A DNA stretch of 64,000 nucleotides from a virus: IMG/VR virus record IMGVR_UViG_3300044820_000144, positions 51,592 through 115,591 of that record; one strand, given 5' to 3'. The first letter of the stretch is position 1; the number at the start of each line of letters is the position of its first letter. Shown piece after piece: positions 871 to 52,188 of this stretch. Both the position numbers and the translations under genes were made by a program. The notes beneath the pieces are model-generated. The model searched no databases. It worked only from the letters and a program-made list of their open reading frames with translations, and was not told where the DNA came from.

Positions 871-940
871 CTGCTCTCGCGCGCACCACGTTCCGATGCG
901 ACGTCACGCATCACGCACGCATTCCCCACGGAGGTGGACC

Positions 941-3607
941 TTGGTAGCCCTTGTCGAGCCGGACGAGGAGGAAAGATACCTGCTGGCGATCCTCGATTCC
1001 CCGGACGGGATCGACCTCGCCGAATTCGTCATCCACGACGCCCGCAACGCCGACGGCTGCTACCGGTTGTACGACTACCAGTGGCCGTGGTTCGCGAACC
1101 GGGAAGTCCTGCAGATCGAGCAGGGCGGGCGTAACACAGGTAAAACTGAGTCAGTTAAGTTGAGAAGTATCGCGTTCCCGTTCTACCACCCCGGCAAGGG
1201 CATGCTCCTGACCGCGCCCGAGCTGAACCACCTGCGCCCCCTCACCGACGAGGTCGAGCGGATGCTGCTGTCCACCCGGATCGTGCGCGAGATGATGCCC
1301 GGCGGGAAGAGCGCCGGCATCGCCCGCCAACCCCACTGGCAGGTCCGGTTCAAGAACGGCGCGACCATCGTGTCCCGTCTGCCGAACAAGGACGGCAAGG
1401 GCGTCAAGGGTTGTATCGCTGCAAATACGCTGGTTATGACCCGTCGCGGCCACATTCCTGTGCAGGAGGTCGTCGTCGGCGACCAGGTCCTTACCCACAA
1501 GACCCGCTGGCGGCCGGTCACTGCGACGTTCGCGTTCGACGGCGGGGAAGGCCTGCAGGTGAAGGGATCCGGTCACCGCGGGCTCGTCGTCTCCGACTCG
1601 CACGCCTTCTACGGACGACGCAACTCCAACCCGCAGCGCACCCGCAATCTCTCGGACCCGATGTGGGTCGACGCCGTCAGCCCCGAGCTGACCCGCTGGT
1701 ACTGGGCCACCCCCACCTCGTTGCCCGACGACAAGGACGGCGATGCCCCTCGGGTGGACGTGGCCCTCGCGGGCGCCTACGTCGCCGACGGACACATCGC
1801 TCGACGCGGCGACAAGCCGGAACGCCTGGTCTTCACCGACTCGTGGGACGACCTTGCGCGATTGGCCTCAATGGCCCGAATGGGGGGCTACAACCCAGGG
1901 CTGTACCCGCACCCGGACCACCCCAAGACGACCGGCCACCTGGAGATCTGCTCCCGCGAGCTGGCCGCCTGGGTCCTGGAGCACTTCGGCGAGCACGCGG
2001 ACGCGAAGCATCTGCCCGTGTGGCTGCTCGGCGCACCCGAGATGCTGCGGCGGGACTTCTGGGACGCCTACTGCGCCGGTGACGGCCACTGGGAACCGGC
2101 GCGTCAACGCTGGACCGTCAGCACCGCGAGCCGGCGCCTGGCCTGCGACCTGAAGCTCCTGGCGGCCGGTCTCGGCTACGACACCGGCCTGTCCTGGGTC
2201 GACCCGAAGGTCACGCAGATCGCCGGCCGCGAGCTGAAGGCCCCCGCGAAGAGGTCCTACCGTGTCACCGCCGTCCGTCGTGGCCACAAGATCGTCGATG
2301 ACGGGCATGCCTGGGGGAAGATCTCGTCGGTCACCCGGGTCGAGGTCCCGAGCTTCCACGACCTGGCCGTCGAGGAGGACCACTCCTACGTCGCCGAGGG
2401 CGTCGTCCAGCACAACCAGCACGTCGTGAACCTGGAGCTGGACGAGGCGCAGGACTACCCGCCCGCCGGGTGGAAGGAAGTCGTCGAGACCCTGAACCGC
2501 GGAGACCCCGACGCCATGTGGCGCTGCCACGGCGTCAGCAGGGGAGTGCGGGACTCGTTCTTCGACAAGTCCCAGCCGGGCTCGGGGTGGAAGGTCCACC
2601 GCCCGATGGCGATGAACCGGCCCTCCTGGGCGAAGGAGGAAAGGGACTCCAAGATCGTCGAGTACGGCGGGTCCCGGCAGGCCGTGGATTACCGCCGCAA
2701 CATCTACGGCGAGCACGGCGACGCCGCGAACTCCGTCTTCGTCCTGGCCAAGCTGATGGCCACCGTGGACCTGGACGAAGGGTCGATCTACAACACCGAC
2801 GTCTACTCCTGCACGAAGATCGAATACGAGCGGTTCCCGGCCGGTGCGACCGACGACGAGCGCGCCGCCATGATGCACGGCTGGATCCAGATCCCCGGCG
2901 AACACTTCACCGGCTACTCCCAGCGCATCGTCAACCGCGAGGTCGGGTCCCCGCGCGGCTACACCGCCTACTGGGGCGGCATGGACGTCGGCGTCACCAA
3001 CCACCCCAGCGAGATCCTCATCTTCGGCCAGCGGACCGGCACCGAGTTCCTGGAGCTGCTCACCCGCGTGCAGATGCACCGCATCAACACCGACGACCAG
3101 CTGCTCGTGGTCCAGCGGATGTTCGAGATCTACGGCGAAAAATTGCGCTTCGGGATTGACAAGACCGGCGTCGGGTTCCCGCTGTGGGACCAGCTGACCC
3201 GCCGGTCCTTCGGCGACCGGGTCTACGGGTTCGGCTTCAGCGAGAAGCGGGTCGTCGCCATCGAGGACCGCGACCTGGAAGCCGGGGAGACGATGAAGGA
3301 CCTGGCGAAGATGCGGAACATGGTCGAGGCGTCCACCGACTGGCTGCGCAACGACTACGTGGACGCCAAGAAGTTCCGCCTGCCCTACGACCGTGAGGTC
3401 CTCATCGAGTTCCAGGGGCAGACGTACACCGTCATGCGCGACACCGGCGACCCCTACGGCATGCGCCGACAGTTCGCCGGCGGCAGCTTCCACACCCTGG
3501 ACGCCGCGAAGGTCGCCGTCGCGACCAAGCACATCCCGCCGCTGGAGGCCCTCCTGGATGCCAAGCCGGCCCAGGGACAGGTCTTCGACGTGTTCATGGG
3601 CGCGTGA
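941..3607 (+). CDS. terL: Terminase large subunit, intein-containing
   Basis: GGAGG then TTG at 941; Walker A GGRNTGKT, Walker B LELDEAQD, nuclease motifs GMDVG, IDKTGVG, HTLDA. Confidence 0.92.
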   Translation: MVALVEPDEEERYLLAILDSPDGIDLAEFVIHDARNADGCYRLYDYQWPWFANREVLQIEQGGRNTGKTESVKLRSIAFPFYHPGKGMLLTAPELNHLRPLTDEVERMLLSTRIVREMMPGGKSAGIARQPHWQVRFKNGATIVSRLPNKDGKGVKGCIAANTLVMTRRGHIPVQEVVVGDQVLTHKTRWRPVTATFAFDGGEGLQVKGSGHRGLVVSDSHAFYGRRNSNPQRTRNLSDPMWVDAVSPELTRWYWATPTSLPDDKDGDAPRVDVALAGAYVADGHIARRGDKPERLVFTDSWDDLARLASMARMGGYNPGLYPHPDHPKTTGHLEICSRELAAWVLEHFGEHADAKHLPVWLLGAPEMLRRDFWDAYCAGDGHWEPARQRWTVSTASRRLACDLKLLAAGLGYDTGLSWVDPKVTQIAGRELKAPAKRSYRVTAVRRGHKIVDDGHAWGKISSVTRVEVPSFHDLAVEEDHSYVAEGVVQHNQHVVNLELDEAQDYPPAGWKEVVETLNRGDPDAMWRCHGVSRGVRDSFFDKSQPGSGWKVHRPMAMNRPSWAKEERDSKIVEYGGSRQAVDYRRNIYGEHGDAANSVFVLAKLMATVDLDEGSIYNTDVYSCTKIEYERFPAGATDDERAAMMHGWIQIPGEHFTGYSQRIVNREVGSPRGYTAYWGGMDVGVTNHPSEILIFGQRTGTEFLELLTRVQMHRINTDDQLLVVQRMFEIYGEKLRFGIDKTGVGFPLWDQLTRRSFGDRVYGFGFSEKRVVAIEDRDLEAGETMKDLAKMRNMVEASTDWLRNDYVDAKKFRLPYDREVLIEFQGQTYTVMRDTGDPYGMRRQFAGGSFHTLDAAKVAVATKHIPPLEALLDAKPAQGQVFDVFMGA
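1412..2416 (+). mobile_element. Intein (335 aa) with LAGLIDADG homing endonuclease
   Basis: Block A CIAANTLVMTRRGHIPVQEV; LAGAYVADG and FWDAYCAGDG endonuclease motifs; block F/G FHDLAVEEDHSYVAEGVVQHN. Confidence 0.93.
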
Positions 3608-3999: not shown

Positions 4000-4368
4000 A
4001 TGCAGTTCGAGGTGGAAGGCACCCAGGACGCCGGCTATGTCGACGGACTGGTGCCCGAAGTCGCGGCAGAGCTGGCATGGGGAGCCCTTGTCAGCCGCCA
4101 GGCCGTCGAGGAAGAGATCGACCTCATGCTCCGCACCGTCCGCGGCTTCTGGCAGTTCGAGCCCGACGCCGTCGCCAAGCTGATCCAGGCGATGAGCGCC
4201 CGGTGCACCGAGTTGTGCGTCCACCTGCACCGCCTCGAAGGCCGCAGGGAGTGGAAACAGGTGCGCACCCAGCAGGTCGAACGGCTCCTGGCGGAACTGG
4301 ACCGGCAGTGGAAGCTCGCCAGCCGTCTGATTGCTGTCCGGCAACAGGACATCGATCTCTCACGATGA
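4000..4368 (+). CDS. Hypothetical helical protein upstream of portal
   Basis: ATG at 4000 after GGAG; phage-like codon usage. Confidence 0.75.
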   Translation: MQFEVEGTQDAGYVDGLVPEVAAELAWGALVSRQAVEEEIDLMLRTVRGFWQFEPDAVAKLIQAMSARCTELCVHLHRLEGRREWKQVRTQQVERLLAELDRQWKLASRLIAVRQQDIDLSR

Positions 4369-4378
4369 GAGGCCGTCC

Positions 4379-6187
4379 GTGTTCGAAGTCGAAGCCACCT
4401 CCGAGCTGACCCTGCCCGACGGGCGACCGCTCGGCCTGATGAACACCACCAGCATCGGCAACGGGGAAATCGCCGGCGACCCGGAGGTCCAGCGACTCGC
4501 CCGCGAAATCAGCCGCTGGGTCGACCTGTCCCGCAACAGCCCCACCGCCCACGGCGGCATGTTCGACCGGCAGGCGTACACCCCGCCCAACAACCCGTAC
4601 GACCAGATCCGCACCGCCAAGATGGCGCTGATCGAAGACGACGTCGTCGGCACCGTCGCCGAAGCCACCGAAGCCATCGCCTTCCGGGGCGGCCTGAAGT
4701 GGGAAGCGCCCGACCCCGACGACGCCGACGTGTTCAACCAGATGGCCGCCGACCTGAACCTCGACGACCAGATCCGCACCATGTGGCGCGAGGCGTTCGC
4801 GACCGACCAGTTCGTGTGCGCGAAGCTGTGGGGCTGGAGCGAGTACACCGTCCGCGGGAAGACCACCAAGGGCAACCAGCGGAAGAAGAAGTACCGGATC
4901 TGGTGCCCCCAGCGTCTGGTCATGCTGAACAGCGAGCACGTCGTCCCCCTGGGCATCGGGCCGCTGCGCACCGACCGGCTGGCGTGGAACGCCAACCCCG
5001 CCGACATCGTCAACTTCGACGCCGCCAGCCGCGGCGACATCATCGACCCGCTCATGGTCCAGTTCTTCAAGGGCCTCTACACCCCGTCCGACCCCGAGCG
5101 GACCGAGTTCCAGCAGTGGCACATCTACGGTGACCGGCTCCTGGAGATGGACCCCGCCTGGGTGTTCCGCCACTGCCACACCAAGCCCGACTACCTGAAG
5201 TTCCCCGACCTGCGGTTGCGGTCGGTGTTCCCGCTGCTGGATCTGAAGCGGCAGCTGCGCGCCAGCGACCGGGCCGCCCTCATCGGCGCCGCGAACTACA
5301 TCCTGCTCATCCGCAAGGGCGACAAGGAGACCCCGGCCACCCAGGACGAGGTGAACCACCTCAAGCAGAATTACAACTTCCTGGCCAAGCTCCCGGTCAT
5401 CATCACCGACCATCGCCTCACGATTGACGTGATCGCTCCGAAGCTCGACTTCGTCCTCAAGCCCGAGGCGTACGACGTCCTGGACCAGAAGATCCTCACC
5501 CGGACCCTGTCGGCGTTCCTGCCACCCAAGGTCCGCACCCTGGACGCCCCGTCCTGGAACGACGTGATCTGCAACTCGGTCCAGTCCCGCCGCCACATGA
5601 TCGCCCGGACGCTGGAGCAGGAGATCGCCCGCGCCGTCGTCAACCACCCCAAGAACGCCGGCGTCTTCGCCCCCGGCGGACGGCCCTCCCTGGTCTTCAC
5701 CCCCCGCACCGTGTCCGTCGGCACCGACGACGCCACCATGCAGGCCCTGCTGGCCCTGCGCACCCAGCGTGAAGTCAGCCGCGACACCATCCTCGAACAC
5801 CTCGGCCTGGACGAAGCGACCGAAGCCCAGCGCATGGAGCTGGAAGACGAGCTGTACGACGACATCTTCAAGACCCAGATCCCGTTCGCCTCCCCCGGCA
5901 TGGGCGGTGTCGCCAACGGCGGCGCAGGGCAGGGCCAGACCCCCAACGGCCGCAACGACAGCCCCGGCGCCCCCGGCGCCTCAGCCACCGTCAAGCCCGC
6001 CGCGAAGAAGGCCGCCCCGGCCGCACCGGCCAAGAAGACCGCCACCCCCAACGGCACCCCCGAGGCACCCAAGGTGTCCGGCGGACGCGGGGGACGCCCC
6101 GTCGGCGGCGGATCGAGCGCCAAATCGCCTGCGGCGACGGCACGGCCGAAGACCAGCAACGGCAACCCGTCGACGAAGGAGAGGTAA
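4379..6187 (+). CDS. Portal protein (low-complexity Pro/Ala/Lys C-terminal tail)
   Basis: Size (~600 aa), position after terminase and before protease/scaffold, helical portal-like composition. Confidence 0.8.
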   Translation: MFEVEATSELTLPDGRPLGLMNTTSIGNGEIAGDPEVQRLAREISRWVDLSRNSPTAHGGMFDRQAYTPPNNPYDQIRTAKMALIEDDVVGTVAEATEAIAFRGGLKWEAPDPDDADVFNQMAADLNLDDQIRTMWREAFATDQFVCAKLWGWSEYTVRGKTTKGNQRKKKYRIWCPQRLVMLNSEHVVPLGIGPLRTDRLAWNANPADIVNFDAASRGDIIDPLMVQFFKGLYTPSDPERTEFQQWHIYGDRLLEMDPAWVFRHCHTKPDYLKFPDLRLRSVFPLLDLKRQLRASDRAALIGAANYILLIRKGDKETPATQDEVNHLKQNYNFLAKLPVIITDHRLTIDVIAPKLDFVLKPEAYDVLDQKILTRTLSAFLPPKVRTLDAPSWNDVICNSVQSRRHMIARTLEQEIARAVVNHPKNAGVFAPGGRPSLVFTPRTVSVGTDDATMQALLALRTQREVSRDTILEHLGLDEATEAQRMELEDELYDDIFKTQIPFASPGMGGVANGGAGQGQTPNGRNDSPGAPGASATVKPAAKKAAPAAPAKKTATPNGTPEAPKVSGGRGGRPVGGGSSAKSPAATARPKTSNGNPSTKER

Positions 6188-8073
6188 TGGTGAGCCTGGA
6201 CCGCGAGCGGCTCCTGCAGACCTACGCGCCCCGGCTCGCCGCCAGGGTCCAGACGCAGGGTGCCGTGGACTACCTGGCGTCGCTCGGCTACGACCCGGAT
6301 CAGGCCGCTGCCGCCCTCGACCGGCTCACGGCTGCGCGTGACGCGGTCAACGCCGTCATCCCCGACCTGCCCCGCACCGGGACCAGCGCCGGCGACGCCG
6401 TCAGCCTCCTGACCGACATGGTGCAGCAGATCAACGACAGGGACGAGCAGGACGAACAGGAGGAGAAGGACGACGACCAGCCCACCGGGGTCATGGTCGC
6501 CTTCTACCCCGACCCCGAGACCGCCGCCGCCCTGGCCCTGTCCGACGCCGACTGCGAGATGGCCCGGGACATGCCCGGCGGGACCGCGACGACGCCCAAG
6601 GGCATCCCGATGCGCTCACGGCCCATGCTGATGCCCAAGGCCGGCGTCACCATGGGCGAGCCCGTCGACCCCGGCGACGACCCGGTCGGCGGTCACGAGG
6701 ACGGCCCCGAGGAGAAGGACGACCAGGGCGGCGTGGACGCCGAGGACGCCGACGAGCTGCACCTCACCCTGGTCTTCCTCGGCACGGCCGGCGCCGACGT
6801 CCCCGAGTCGCTGCTGCCCACGCTGCTGTCCACCGTGAAGGGCTGGGCCGCGACCACCCCACCGATCACCGGGTACACCTCCGGGATCGGCGTCTTCGCC
6901 AACCCCGGCGAGACCGTCACCTACGCCAGCGTCGACTGCCCCGCCCTGCCCGCCGCCCGGCAGGAGCTGGTCCGCCTGCTGACCGGCGAGGGCCTGCCCG
7001 TCTCGGCGACCCACGGGTTCACCCCGCACATCACCCTGGCCTACGGCGACGCCCGCGACGCCGAGGTCTCCCGGCTGCCGCTGGTCTTCTCCACCGTCTC
7101 CGTGGTGTACGCCGGGCAGCGCACGGACTTCCCGATGGGCCCGGCCCCCGCCGTCACCGGCCCGCCCCAGGTCGACGACGTCGCCGAACGCGCCCGGGTG
7201 GTCGAGCGGGTGGTCGAACGGGTGGACGAGTGGACCATTCCGACCCTGACCGCCGCCGGAGCGAGCGTCACGGTCCCGGCCGAGCCCTGGCACGCCGTGG
7301 TCACCGACATCGGGGGCCGCACCTTCCTCACCGCCCCCGCCACCACCTCCACCGTCGGCCCCGAGCTGGCCGCGTGGGCCGGCGCCCCGAACCCGAACAA
7401 ACACATGCTGTGGATGCAGGGCCGGTTCGTCGGCGGGGACCGGCCCAACAAGAACGGCGCCCTCTGGTCGTCCGCCGACCTGGAGATGGGCAAGGCGACC
7501 GTCAGCCACGGGCCGCTGAACTGGCTGCACGAGGATCGGCACGTCATCGGCACCATCGCCGACGCCAAGTTCGTCCCCGCCCCCGGCGGCGGCGGCCTGC
7601 AGGTCGCGATGGACGGGATGGGCGGCGCCCCGGCCTGCCAGGACCCGCACATCGCCGCCCTGTCGGTGATCTGGCGGTGGATCTACCCCGACGAGGCGTC
7701 CATCGTGCAGATGGCCTCCGACGCCCAGGTGCTCGCCTACTCGATGGAATGCATCTCCGAGGCCATCCAGTGCGTAGGCGACAGCGGCTGTCAGCAGACC
7801 TACTCCTACCTGGAGTACGCCCGCGGTCAGGCGTGCGACCACCTGCAGCAGCGCGCCTCGGTCCGGCGACTGGTCAACCCGACATTCCTCGGCGGCGCCG
7901 TCATCGTCCCCCCGACCCGTCCCGGGTGGGCCGAAGCCGACGCCACCGTGCTGAAGCAGGCCGCCGCCATGGCCGAGAAGGCGTACGAACAGGCCGGGCG
8001 TCCCGACATCCCCGCCGCCACGTGGGACCAGATGATGGCCGGAGTGCTGACGTTCGCTCAGGGCGCCCAGTGA
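6187..8073 (+). CDS. Fusion of 2H phosphoesterase (2'-5' RNA ligase/Acb1-like) and putative capsid maturation protease
   Basis: HLT (6760) and HIT (7027) 2H motifs; C-terminal NWLH...AYSMEC...FLGGAVI protease-like region; position between portal and scaffold. Confidence 0.75.
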   Translation: MVSLDRERLLQTYAPRLAARVQTQGAVDYLASLGYDPDQAAAALDRLTAARDAVNAVIPDLPRTGTSAGDAVSLLTDMVQQINDRDEQDEQEEKDDDQPTGVMVAFYPDPETAAALALSDADCEMARDMPGGTATTPKGIPMRSRPMLMPKAGVTMGEPVDPGDDPVGGHEDGPEEKDDQGGVDAEDADELHLTLVFLGTAGADVPESLLPTLLSTVKGWAATTPPITGYTSGIGVFANPGETVTYASVDCPALPAARQELVRLLTGEGLPVSATHGFTPHITLAYGDARDAEVSRLPLVFSTVSVVYAGQRTDFPMGPAPAVTGPPQVDDVAERARVVERVVERVDEWTIPTLTAAGASVTVPAEPWHAVVTDIGGRTFLTAPATTSTVGPELAAWAGAPNPNKHMLWMQGRFVGGDRPNKNGALWSSADLEMGKATVSHGPLNWLHEDRHVIGTIADAKFVPAPGGGGLQVAMDGMGGAPACQDPHIAALSVIWRWIYPDEASIVQMASDAQVLAYSMECISEAIQCVGDSGCQQTYSYLEYARGQACDHLQQRASVRRLVNPTFLGGAVIVPPTRPGWAEADATVLKQAAAMAEKAYEQAGRPDIPAATWDQMMAGVLTFAQGAQ

Positions 8074-50715: not shown

Positions 50716-52188
50716 TTGGCTCTGGTAATTCGAACGACCGGGCTGGAACAGTACGCTCCCGGAGGGGAAGCACGCCTCAAGCTGCTCACCATCGGCGGCC
50801 CCGGCGTCGGCAAGACCCGCTTCGCCTCCTACTTCCCCCGCCCCATCTACGCCGACTGCGAGGCCGGCCTCGCCTCCGTCGCCGACCGCAACGTCCCCTA
50901 CGTCTCGGTCAACTCCAGCAGCGACATGCTCGACCTGCTCGCCCACCTCAAGCTCGAATGCCGCCTGCCCAAGGACAAGCGCACCTACGACACCGTCGTC
51001 ATCGACACCCTGGACGCCTACCAGCGCAAGCTCAAGAACGAATGGATGGAGACCAACAAGGCACCCGCCTTCACCGGCTGGGAGGCATGGGGATTCGTCG
51101 GACAGAAGATGAGCCTGCTGTTGACCAGGCTGCTGAACCTCGACATGAACGTCATCGTCAACGTCCACTACAAGGACAAGACCACCAAGGACGACGACAG
51201 CGGCAAGGAAACCCACGAGCTGATGCTCCAGCTCCAGGGCGAGATCTCCGACACCGCGTTCAACGACTTCGACCTCGTCGGCTGGATGGGCACCTACTGG
51301 GAGACCGAGGCCGGCGAGCGCGTCCAGAAGCGCGGCCTGACGTTCAAGCCCACCCCGGACAAGCCGTTCCTCAAGGACCGCCTGCACGTCACGCCCACCT
51401 GGATGGAGATCCGGTTCGCCGACAGCGACTACGAGCAGCTGTTCACCCGCATCACCGACCGCCTCGCCGACCTGGCACCCACCCAGACCGTCGGGGAGAT
51501 CCCCACCGCCGACCCCAACGCCGTCATCCCGTCCGGCGTCGTGCGCCCCGAGGCGGTCGCCTCCGGCGCCCTGCCCCCGCAGCAGCCGACCGAGCTGCCC
51601 CTGGCCCAGCTGGACAAGCCGGCCCTGGCGAAGAAGGCCCGCGACCTCGGCGTCACCACCCTGCCCGACGGGTCACCGATCAAGGGCAACACCCTCAAGG
51701 CCGAGCTGATCGCCGCCATCGAGCACCACCAGGCCCAGCCCGCAGCCGAGTCCCCTCAGCCCGCCGCGGAGCCCGCCGCGGAGCCCGCCGCGGAGCCCGC
51801 CGCGGAGGCGAACACCGAGACGCCGGCTGCTGCACCGCCCACGGCCAACCCCAGCCGGGTCACCGTGCCCCGACAGAACAGCGCACCTGACATCGAGCGG
51901 GTCACCGAGGGCCTGGTGGACAAGCGCACCGGGGAGCTGCTGGACGAGCCCGACACCGAGGCCGCCATCGCGACGGTGCAGAAGGAGCTGGGCGGGCGGG
52001 TCATCGCCCAGCCCGTCGACAAGCCCGCCGAGCCGAAAGCTGCGCCGGCATCCACCGCGCCGACCGTCGTCTGCGAGGACTGCGGAAAGGACCTCGCGGG
52101 AGAACGACAGGACTACGTGAAACTCGCGTGGATCAAGTACCGGAAGCGGCTGTGCGAATCCGATTACCAGACCCGCAAGAACGGCTGA
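50716..52188 (+). CDS. AAA_24 / Sak4-like ATPase recombinase with C-terminal Zn finger
   Basis: GGPGVGKT, VVIDTLD, DLVG; CEDC...LCESD; AAAAGGAG RBS before TTG. Confidence 0.82.
   Translation: MALVIRTTGLEQYAPGGEARLKLLTIGGPGVGKTRFASYFPRPIYADCEAGLASVADRNVPYVSVNSSSDMLDLLAHLKLECRLPKDKRTYDTVVIDTLDAYQRKLKNEWMETNKAPAFTGWEAWGFVGQKMSLLLTRLLNLDMNVIVNVHYKDKTTKDDDSGKETHELMLQLQGEISDTAFNDFDLVGWMGTYWETEAGERVQKRGLTFKPTPDKPFLKDRLHVTPTWMEIRFADSDYEQLFTRITDRLADLAPTQTVGEIPTADPNAVIPSGVVRPEAVASGALPPQQPTELPLAQLDKPALAKKARDLGVTTLPDGSPIKGNTLKAELIAAIEHHQAQPAAESPQPAAEPAAEPAAEPAAEANTETPAAAPPTANPSRVTVPRQNSAPDIERVTEGLVDKRTGELLDEPDTEAAIATVQKELGGRVIAQPVDKPAEPKAAPASTAPTVVCEDCGKDLAGERQDYVKLAWIKYRKRLCESDYQTRKNG
51760..51807 (+). 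repeat. 12-bp tandem repeat x4 (PAAE linker)
   Basis: CCCGCCGCGGAG four times. Confidence 0.9.

Follow-up and report, generated by a model that had tools for sequence, protein, structure and literature searches.

In canonical protein splicing, the first residue after the intein (+1) is Cys, Ser or Thr, which forms a branched (thio)ester intermediate. To our knowledge, one of these residues is treated as obligatory in all three recognised intein classes, and the absence of a +1 nucleophile is what sets bacterial intein-like (BIL) domains apart. Here we analyse a 64,000-nucleotide stretch (hereafter the window) of the IMG/VR virus record IMGVR_UViG_3300044820_000144, positions 51,592 to 115,591, in which the gene for the large terminase subunit (TerL) carries a full-length intein followed by Gln. 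The original prediction, made from the letters of the window, had located this intein, and its coordinates and junction strings proved exact when the sequence was re-read. Cys1, the terminal His-Asn, both LAGLIDADG motifs and a site just upstream of Walker B, all of which it had described, are present.

Type A BILs (e.g., Clostridium thermocellum BIL4, PDB 2LWY) resemble the window intein in having a HINT domain with Cys1, a terminal His-Asn and no +1 nucleophile. The chemistry proposed for them is thioester formation and Asn cyclisation followed by attack of the freed α-amine, with cleavage as a side reaction (PMC4031507, PMC7664689; Dassa et al. 2004, Aranko et al. 2013). By analogy, the TerL intein probably has this chemistry in common with them. 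BILs are not known to carry a homing endonuclease or to be mobile, and are described as lying in variable regions of non-essential bacterial proteins (PMC4031507, PMC7664689). The TerL intein, in contrast, has intact LAGLIDADG motifs, interrupts an active-site loop that is near-invariant in an essential phage enzyme, is present in some alleles and absent from others, and has true inteins as its relatives by both sequence and fold.

Class 1 LAGLIDADG inteins (the Tli and Pho VMA inteins, 7QSU and 7QST; PI-SceI, 1VDE; PI-PkoII, 2CW7; PI-PfuI, 1DQ3) share the fold, the blocks, Cys1, His-Asn and the nested endonuclease. Their +1 residue is Cys, Ser or Thr and their splicing proceeds via a branched (thio)ester, whereas the window intein is followed by Gln. 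Inteins at the same site with Thr, Ser or Cys at +1 (e.g., P0161, P0132, P0180 and P0254) have the same KG-xH insertion, belong to the same family and have the same architecture, but have kept the nucleophile. The TerL inteins of mycobacteriophages (PMC5050341) and those of an actinophage survey (bioRxiv 10.1101/2025.01.02.630785) likewise cluster in the ATPase domain at the P-loop and Walker B; they have active endonucleases and can occupy several sites per protein, and they are class 1 or class 3 inteins that splice efficiently in reporters. The searched text of these two reports makes no mention of a missing +1 nucleophile. A full-text literature search of incomplete coverage, which leaves novelty unproven, brought up no endonuclease-bearing intein described as lacking a +1 nucleophile. 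What the comparison brings to light is a mobile intein in an essential phage enzyme that lacks this residue across a deep, diversified lineage in which the other catalytic residues are constrained. It would be either an intein that ligates via the α-amine alone, or an insertion in a packaging ATPase that works nicked or in two pieces in its active-site loop.

Intein anatomy and the +1 residue

The intein comprises residues 158–492 of an 888-aa protein. Its junctions are KGVKG-CIAANT on the N-terminal side and GVVQHN-QHVVNLELDE on the C-terminal side, nine residues before the Walker B Asp-Glu. The following features were assigned.

1412..2416, + strand: full-length intein, 335 aa, with a HINT splicing domain and a nested LAGLIDADG endonuclease (Pfam, AlphaFold2/Foldseek, homologs)
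1412..1414, + strand: Cys1 (TGT), the block A nucleophile; Cys in 39 and Ser in 11 of 50 same-site inteins
1601..1603, + strand: His64 of block B (S-x-x-H), invariant in the same-site inteins (50/50)
1766..1792, + strand: LAGLIDADG motif 1, LAGAYVADG, residues 119–127, with Asp126; G121, A125 and G127 in 50/50, D126 in 44/50
2057..2086, + strand: LAGLIDADG motif 2, FWDAYCAGDG, residues 216–225, with Asp224; Y220 and G223 in 50/50, D224 in 49/50
2354..2398, + strand: block F, FHDLAVEEDHSYVAE, with Asp323 and His324; His324 relaxed in the split-gene clade only
2411..2416, + strand: block G, His334-Asn335 (CAC AAC), the C-terminal splice junction; Asn in 44/44 unsplit, Gly in 6/6 split members
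2417..2419, + strand: Gln+1 (CAG), first C-extein residue and not a nucleophile (sequence, homologs, second assembly)

HINT blocks A, B, F and G, Cys1 with the block B His, His-Asn and two acidic LAGLIDADG motifs are all those of a class 1 intein. So is the in-frame insertion at a conserved site, the near-invariant GKGVKG-xH loop, of which intein-free alleles up to 86% identical exist. The element departs from that class at +1, where Gln replaces Cys, Ser or Thr. Pfam LAGLIDADG_3 matched with 29.4 bits against a cut-off of 22.5, and Hint_2 and Intein_splicing matched the N- and C-terminal ends, respectively, both below their cut-offs. An AlphaFold2 model of the intein, built with 42 relatives, had a predicted local distance difference test score (pLDDT) of 93.6 and a predicted template modelling score (pTM) of 0.91. 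In a Foldseek comparison with the PDB, its best matches were TliVMA (TM 0.72, E 1e-18), PI-SceI, PhoVMA, PI-PkoII and PI-PfuI, all endonuclease-bearing inteins; endonuclease-associated inteins as a group matched at TM 0.56–0.72. The top 50 PDB fold matches listed contained no BIL entry, and consisted of inteins associated with homing endonucleases and free-standing LAGLIDADG endonucleases (I-DmoI, I-Tsp061I). Among 1.84 billion cluster representatives, 3485 relatives of the intein were found, 181 of them at E < 1e-30; the nearest by sequence lie in TerL and in other proteins and are themselves inteins, with C/S/T at +1. Judged by sequence and model, the element is best described as a mobile LAGLIDADG intein of class 1 build, from an old lineage without a +1 nucleophile, with splicing and endonuclease activity predicted.

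The Gln+1 assignment was cross-checked on assembled contigs. A Logan assembly of the probable source sample is identical to the window over 1300–2600, and a 151-nt contig from another study, a freshwater metagenome, is ~93% identical across the C-terminal junction and leaves 2411–2419 unchanged. A sequencing error at +1, which the original prediction had listed for checking, thus finds no support, there being no S, T or C in the independent assembly. Intein-free homologs whose C-exteins are 79–86% identical read KGVKG-QHVV..DE in an unambiguous register; because of this, G/Q is the native junction, exactly where it had been placed. In 110 intein-free alleles, the residue at this position is Q (76), M (20), V (4), I (4), N (3) or L (3), and S, T or C occurs in none of the 110.

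Other accounts of the junction were also considered. A shifted junction was ruled out by the residues at the ends of the insert (G-C and N-Q), which permit no other register. The C-extein begins QHVVNLELDEAQ, which ruled out an alternative nucleophile close by. A separate internal start for the C-extein in the window was rejected as well: +1 is CAG, and the sole in-frame GTG (+4) is without a well-placed ribosome-binding site.

Nucleophile-less relatives and the split-gene clade

Family-wide counts were made on 50%-identity cluster representatives and depend on the junction calls made here. Fifty inteins share the KG site, with Q (13), I (11), T (11), M (4), V (3), L (1) or S (1) at +1 and a split gene in the other 6. 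The +1 residue is therefore nucleophile-less (Q/I/M/V/L) in 32/50 and T/S in 12/50, with 6/50 split. Where related inteins occupy another site or another protein, C/S/T is found at +1 in 97/99; of the two exceptions, at least P0144 is a copy of the same KG site that has lost its N-terminal part. The intein tree was obtained by a quick search with Shimodaira–Hasegawa-like approximate likelihood ratio test (SH-aLRT) support and was rooted with inteins of other sites. In it, the 50 same-site inteins are monophyletic (SH-aLRT 98). One half of the same-site tree holds nucleophile-less and split members only; in the other half, the Thr/Ser group stands beside a monophyletic group with Ile, Val, Leu or Met (SH-aLRT 97). 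Two deep groups are made up of nucleophile-less inteins and, since terminal branches measure ~0.3–1.5 changes per site, this state is old.

Conservation persists in the absence of the nucleophile: Cys or Ser at residue 1 and the block B His are present in 50/50, and among the unsplit members Asn335 is found in 44/44 and His334 in 43/44. The sole position that differs consistently between nucleophile-less and Thr/Ser inteins is Pro105, which is without obvious catalytic meaning. The worry that came with the original prediction, a one-off defective phage, does not hold, as the same state recurs in 32 diverged cluster representatives with their catalytic residues conserved.

The six split members constitute one clade (SH-aLRT 95), which is sister to the subclade of the window intein and lies within the nucleophile-less group. 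Usable DNA was available for four split loci (L001, 456–3156; L003, 717–5551; L004, 105–3192; L046, 1174–3811). In these loci, the first open reading frame (ORF1) encodes the N-extein and the entire HINT-endonuclease domain, without His-Asn and with a brief conserved stretch at its end (Gly-Ser-x-Phe/Trp-Leu/Met-Pro...). ORF2, whose translation is coupled to that of ORF1, encodes the C-terminal part of TerL, starts with Met-His exactly at +1 and contains no intein piece. Across the clade, Gly has replaced Asn335 in 6/6 and constraint on the block F His is relaxed, while neither residue 1 nor the block B His has been lost. As far as sequence comparison can tell, the residues of C-terminal cleavage decay exactly where the C-extein no longer needs cutting off and are held elsewhere, whereas those of the N-terminal acyl shift are held everywhere. 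This contrast offers the strongest available evidence that both cleavage reactions are likely to operate in the Gln+1 form. The split clade also shows, at the level of its genes, that a C-extein with a free N-terminus should be viable. A C-extein with a free α-amine would thereby lie on the reaction pathway, whereas the canonical route through a branched intermediate does not allow such a species.

In fractured genes with split inteins (Dassa et al. 2009, PMC2677866), an essential gene is also cut at the intein site, as in the split clade. There, the intein itself is split, with a piece on each half, whereas here the whole domain stays on the N-fragment and none on the C-fragment. The 120 best relatives of a split C-fragment, a small sample, included no split TerL without a HINT domain. 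One candidate for such a gene, at locus L045, was rejected as a frameshifted intein-free gene. This TerL (L045, 3400–5194) has two frameshifts, one at the P-loop GK and one at the KG157 homing site, on a contig that also encodes a LexA-like repressor; the frameshifts may be imprecisely repaired endonuclease cuts, or sequencing errors. A decayed copy was seen at a further locus (L002, 1–1334), where the N-extein stops early, the HINT-endonuclease has its own frame without His-Asn, and the TerL remainder is without the Walker B segment.

Probable excision and possible fates of the exteins

The reading that we favour, and hold tentatively, is that the intein would remove itself by the Cys1 shift and Asn cyclisation, after which the exteins would be joined by the freed α-amine. 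A branched intermediate is impossible here because the +1 residue, Ile, Val and Leu included, is without a side-chain nucleophile. From residue conservation, we infer two initial steps: an N–S acyl shift at Cys1 would yield a Gly157 thioester, and Asn335 would cyclise without a branched intermediate, freeing the C-extein with the α-amine of Gln+1. In the third and least certain step, which is inference throughout, this α-amine, positioned by the HINT active site and the extein ATPase fold, would attack the Gly157 thioester to produce intact TerL.

Several observations speak for ligation. The motif round the junction is near-invariant (G152, G154, K156, G157, H159), and a HINT domain with its nucleophile is retained in every split locus seen. 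Gly at −1 is the least hindered acyl donor, and it is invariant at this TerL site. Aminolysis by the α-amine after an N–S shift and Asn cyclisation has been proposed for type A BILs (PMC4031507, citing Dassa 2004 and Aranko 2013).

Other points weigh against ligation or limit the case for it. The same conservation would be expected if both cleavages occurred without ligation. Ser1 is present in 11 members, and its oxyester is a poorer acyl donor for aminolysis. In BILs, cleavage products exceed the spliced product (PMC4031507, PMC7664689). The junction calls derive from alignments and patterns applied to proteins from metagenomes, the tree comes from a quick search and has no support values other than SH-aLRT, and the whole case is comparative and predictive, all sequences being metagenomic.

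A bolder version, which we consider rather unlikely, is that the lineage ligates efficiently without a side-chain nucleophile in an extein-templated manner. The α-amine of any +1 residue would attack the Gly thioester and so sustain an essential enzyme, and in the split clade the HINT domain of the N-fragment would join a separate, intein-less C-fragment. If α-amine ligation is true, the family would add a fourth class, by mechanism, to the true inteins and would be a naturally occurring traceless ligase without a +1 requirement. This would matter for protein engineering, where intein-based ligation is limited chiefly by the +1 'scar'.

Excision without ligation is a serious contender, though we would not presume it. 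In this case, the Cys1 shift would be followed by hydrolysis, and Asn335 cyclisation would leave a nicked, two-chain TerL, in which a 157-aa piece (Walker A) and a 396-aa piece (Walker B, nuclease) are joined by the shared ATPase β-sheet. The separate C-fragment of the split clade, which starts from +1 and is viable, fits such an enzyme, as does the excess of cleavage over splicing in BIL domains (PMC4031507, PMC7664689). The junction lies in an inter-strand loop, the least confidently modelled part of the ATPase core in an intein-free homolog, P0004 (pLDDT ~76, residues 150–160), and a nicked enzyme would explain the absent pressure to regain Thr at +1. Against this, a nick would cut the near-invariant motif (G152 to H159) and add two new charges. 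Moreover, the N-fragment in the four good split loci is still fused to HINT with Cys/Ser1 and the block B His, and the small sample of relatives held no HINT-less split form. Among the outcomes named in the original prediction, the comparative data point to the pair of non-canonical splicing and a two-chain terminase, without choosing within it; nothing was found in favour of the conditional packaging switch that had been named beside them.

We regard it as improbable that the intein stays in place as a permanent 335-residue insertion in a working TerL, possibly with its own function or as a switch. The termini of HINT domains are close together, and an insertion in a loop is thus sterically possible. 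However, Cys/Ser1, the block B His and the terminal His-Asn, whose sole known role is bond rearrangement, are kept over deep divergence, and His-Asn decays only where the C-extein is made separately. The site is also nine residues from the Walker B Asp-Glu, and an argument made from the P74-26 pentamer (Kelley et al. 2016, PMC5050341) holds that an intein within the ATPase domain would keep TerL from assembling into rings.

There is similarly little to recommend an unrecognised nucleophile or helper, namely His+2 acting via an acyl-imidazole or as a general base, or a factor supplied by host or phage. All alleles have His+2, whether they carry the intein or not, but because it is equally invariant in intein-free TerLs, it represents an extein requirement and not an intein adaptation. 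No candidate gene for a helper came to light, although no search aimed at one was made. That the element is dead, in a defective phage or through a Gln that is an assembly or sequencing error, could be entertained for a metagenomic assembly without an isolate, but is very improbable and largely refuted already, given an agreeing independent assembly, a contig from another study that is unchanged across the junction, the same state in 32 diverged representatives with intact frames, a record that is 95% complete with its structural module intact, and truly decayed copies that look different (L002 without Walker B, L045 frameshifted).

Probable homing, codon patches and the TerL host

The TerL closest to that of the window among those bearing an intein (P0005) is 85% identical in its extein and 44% in its intein, whereas another (P0072) is 55% identical in its extein and 63% in its intein. 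The closest allele overall (P0004, 86%) is intein-free. This discordance between intein and extein similarities, together with the conserved LAGLIDADG Asp residues, indicates repeated or ongoing homing into nucleophile-less alleles, including those with Q at +1, insofar as it can be read from sequence. In the TerL lineage of the Thr/Ser inteins, a +1 nucleophile occurs in 7/10 alleles with the intein versus 4/33 without it (Fisher p = 0.0009, ignoring shared ancestry). In the TerL lineage of the window, the corresponding numbers are 0/10 and 0/110. It follows from the 7/10 versus 4/33 pattern that part of the family is still canonical and that TerL tolerates Thr at +1. A single mutation would turn Ile or Met into Thr, which TerL accepts, yet Thr has not been fixed in the groups concerned; the nucleophile thus seems to bring little, and the nucleophile-free route to be good enough. 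About 90% of the alleles of the TerL family are without a nucleophile at this site. Loss of the +1 requirement would therefore greatly widen the range of targets that the endonuclease can invade, which suggests an evolutionary reason for it.

Inteins are extremely concentrated in this TerL family, which is without a Pfam match; they occupy at least nine insertion sites. In P0004 numbering, these are after W48, at the P-loop GK, at KG157, at the Walker B DE, and at R193, G351, DK407, Y495 and H517. At every insertion site other than KG157, C, S or T follows the intein. Up to three inteins occur in one TerL gene (P0072, 1502 aa); other family examples are P0014, P0059 and P0009.

Codon usage was unusual at some of these sites. 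A patch over the P-loop of the window gene (1130–1168, RNTGKTESVKLRS) has 9/13 codons ending in A or T, in a gene whose GC content at third codon positions is 91% (binomial p ~2e-7). It covers the empty site of a class 3 intein (GK-T) that is occupied in relatives. Similar patches lie on the same empty GK-T site in three high-GC relatives (L030, L031 and L041), and on the empty KG-QH site in L041. Overall, 5/7 patches found in 24 genes lie on intein sites. The patches fit recoding that evades a homing endonuclease, or conversion tracts. They are genome-specific, and hot spots of A/T-ending codons common to the whole TerL family were not found. Within the intein, the first ~15 codons are the richest A/T-ending stretch in 4/6 loci (the window, 1409–1444; L039; L042; L001), with 7, 7, 9 and 4 A/T-ending codons among the first 15 against a typical 0–3.

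The host gene has the following features.

941-3607, + strand: TerL gene with the intein, a large terminase by fold
941..1411, + strand: TerL N-extein, 157 aa (gene call of the record, homolog starts)
1124..1147, + strand: Walker A / P-loop, GGRNTGKT, assigned from sequence
2417..3607, + strand: TerL C-extein, 396 aa plus stop, with the Walker B strand, the remaining ATPase domain and the nuclease domain
2432..2446, + strand: Walker B, LELDE; D166 and E167 invariant in homolog alignment A1

The open frame on the + strand runs from 896 to 3607 (903 codons). TerL probably starts at TTG 941 and not at ATG 896, because the record's own gene call is 888 aa long (P0003) and homologs start MxAxVxPDEEE; GGAGG is present at 930–934, six bases before TTG 941. 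Pfam and PHROG scans of the TerL exteins matched no family, and the identification as TerL therefore relies on fold and on one annotated phage match. That match is an annotated terminase large subunit, to which the C-extein is 38% identical. An AlphaFold2 model of P0004 matches T4 gp17, Sf6 gp2 and the D6E, HK97 and P74-26 TerL proteins over the ATPase and RNase H-like nuclease domains (E 4e-16 to 1e-7). When a profile of 32 TerL homologs was compared with PDB sequences, it yielded no more than a weak match at Walker A, to P74-26 TerL (E 0.27).

The record comprises 136,218 bases from a peat metagenome, is 95% complete according to CheckV, and contains this TerL as its sole TerL and this intein as its sole copy. 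Downstream of TerL lies a phage morphogenesis module with head protease, major head, tail fibre and endolysin family matches, and upstream a helix-turn-helix protein. The presumed portal (4331–6187, 618 aa) is, like the TerL exteins, without a Pfam or PHROG match. Relatives were found on several contigs of 130–138 kb, and high-GC phages of ~135 kb may thus form a coherent group that is as yet uncultured. One relative lies on a 622-kb contig of an Actinomycetota metagenome-assembled genome. The presumed portal gene is followed by one for a 628-residue protein (6187–8073) with a 2H phosphoesterase / 2'-5' RNA ligase-like domain (Pfam 2_5_RNA_ligase2, E 7e-12), and the same protein also resembles a head maturation protease family.

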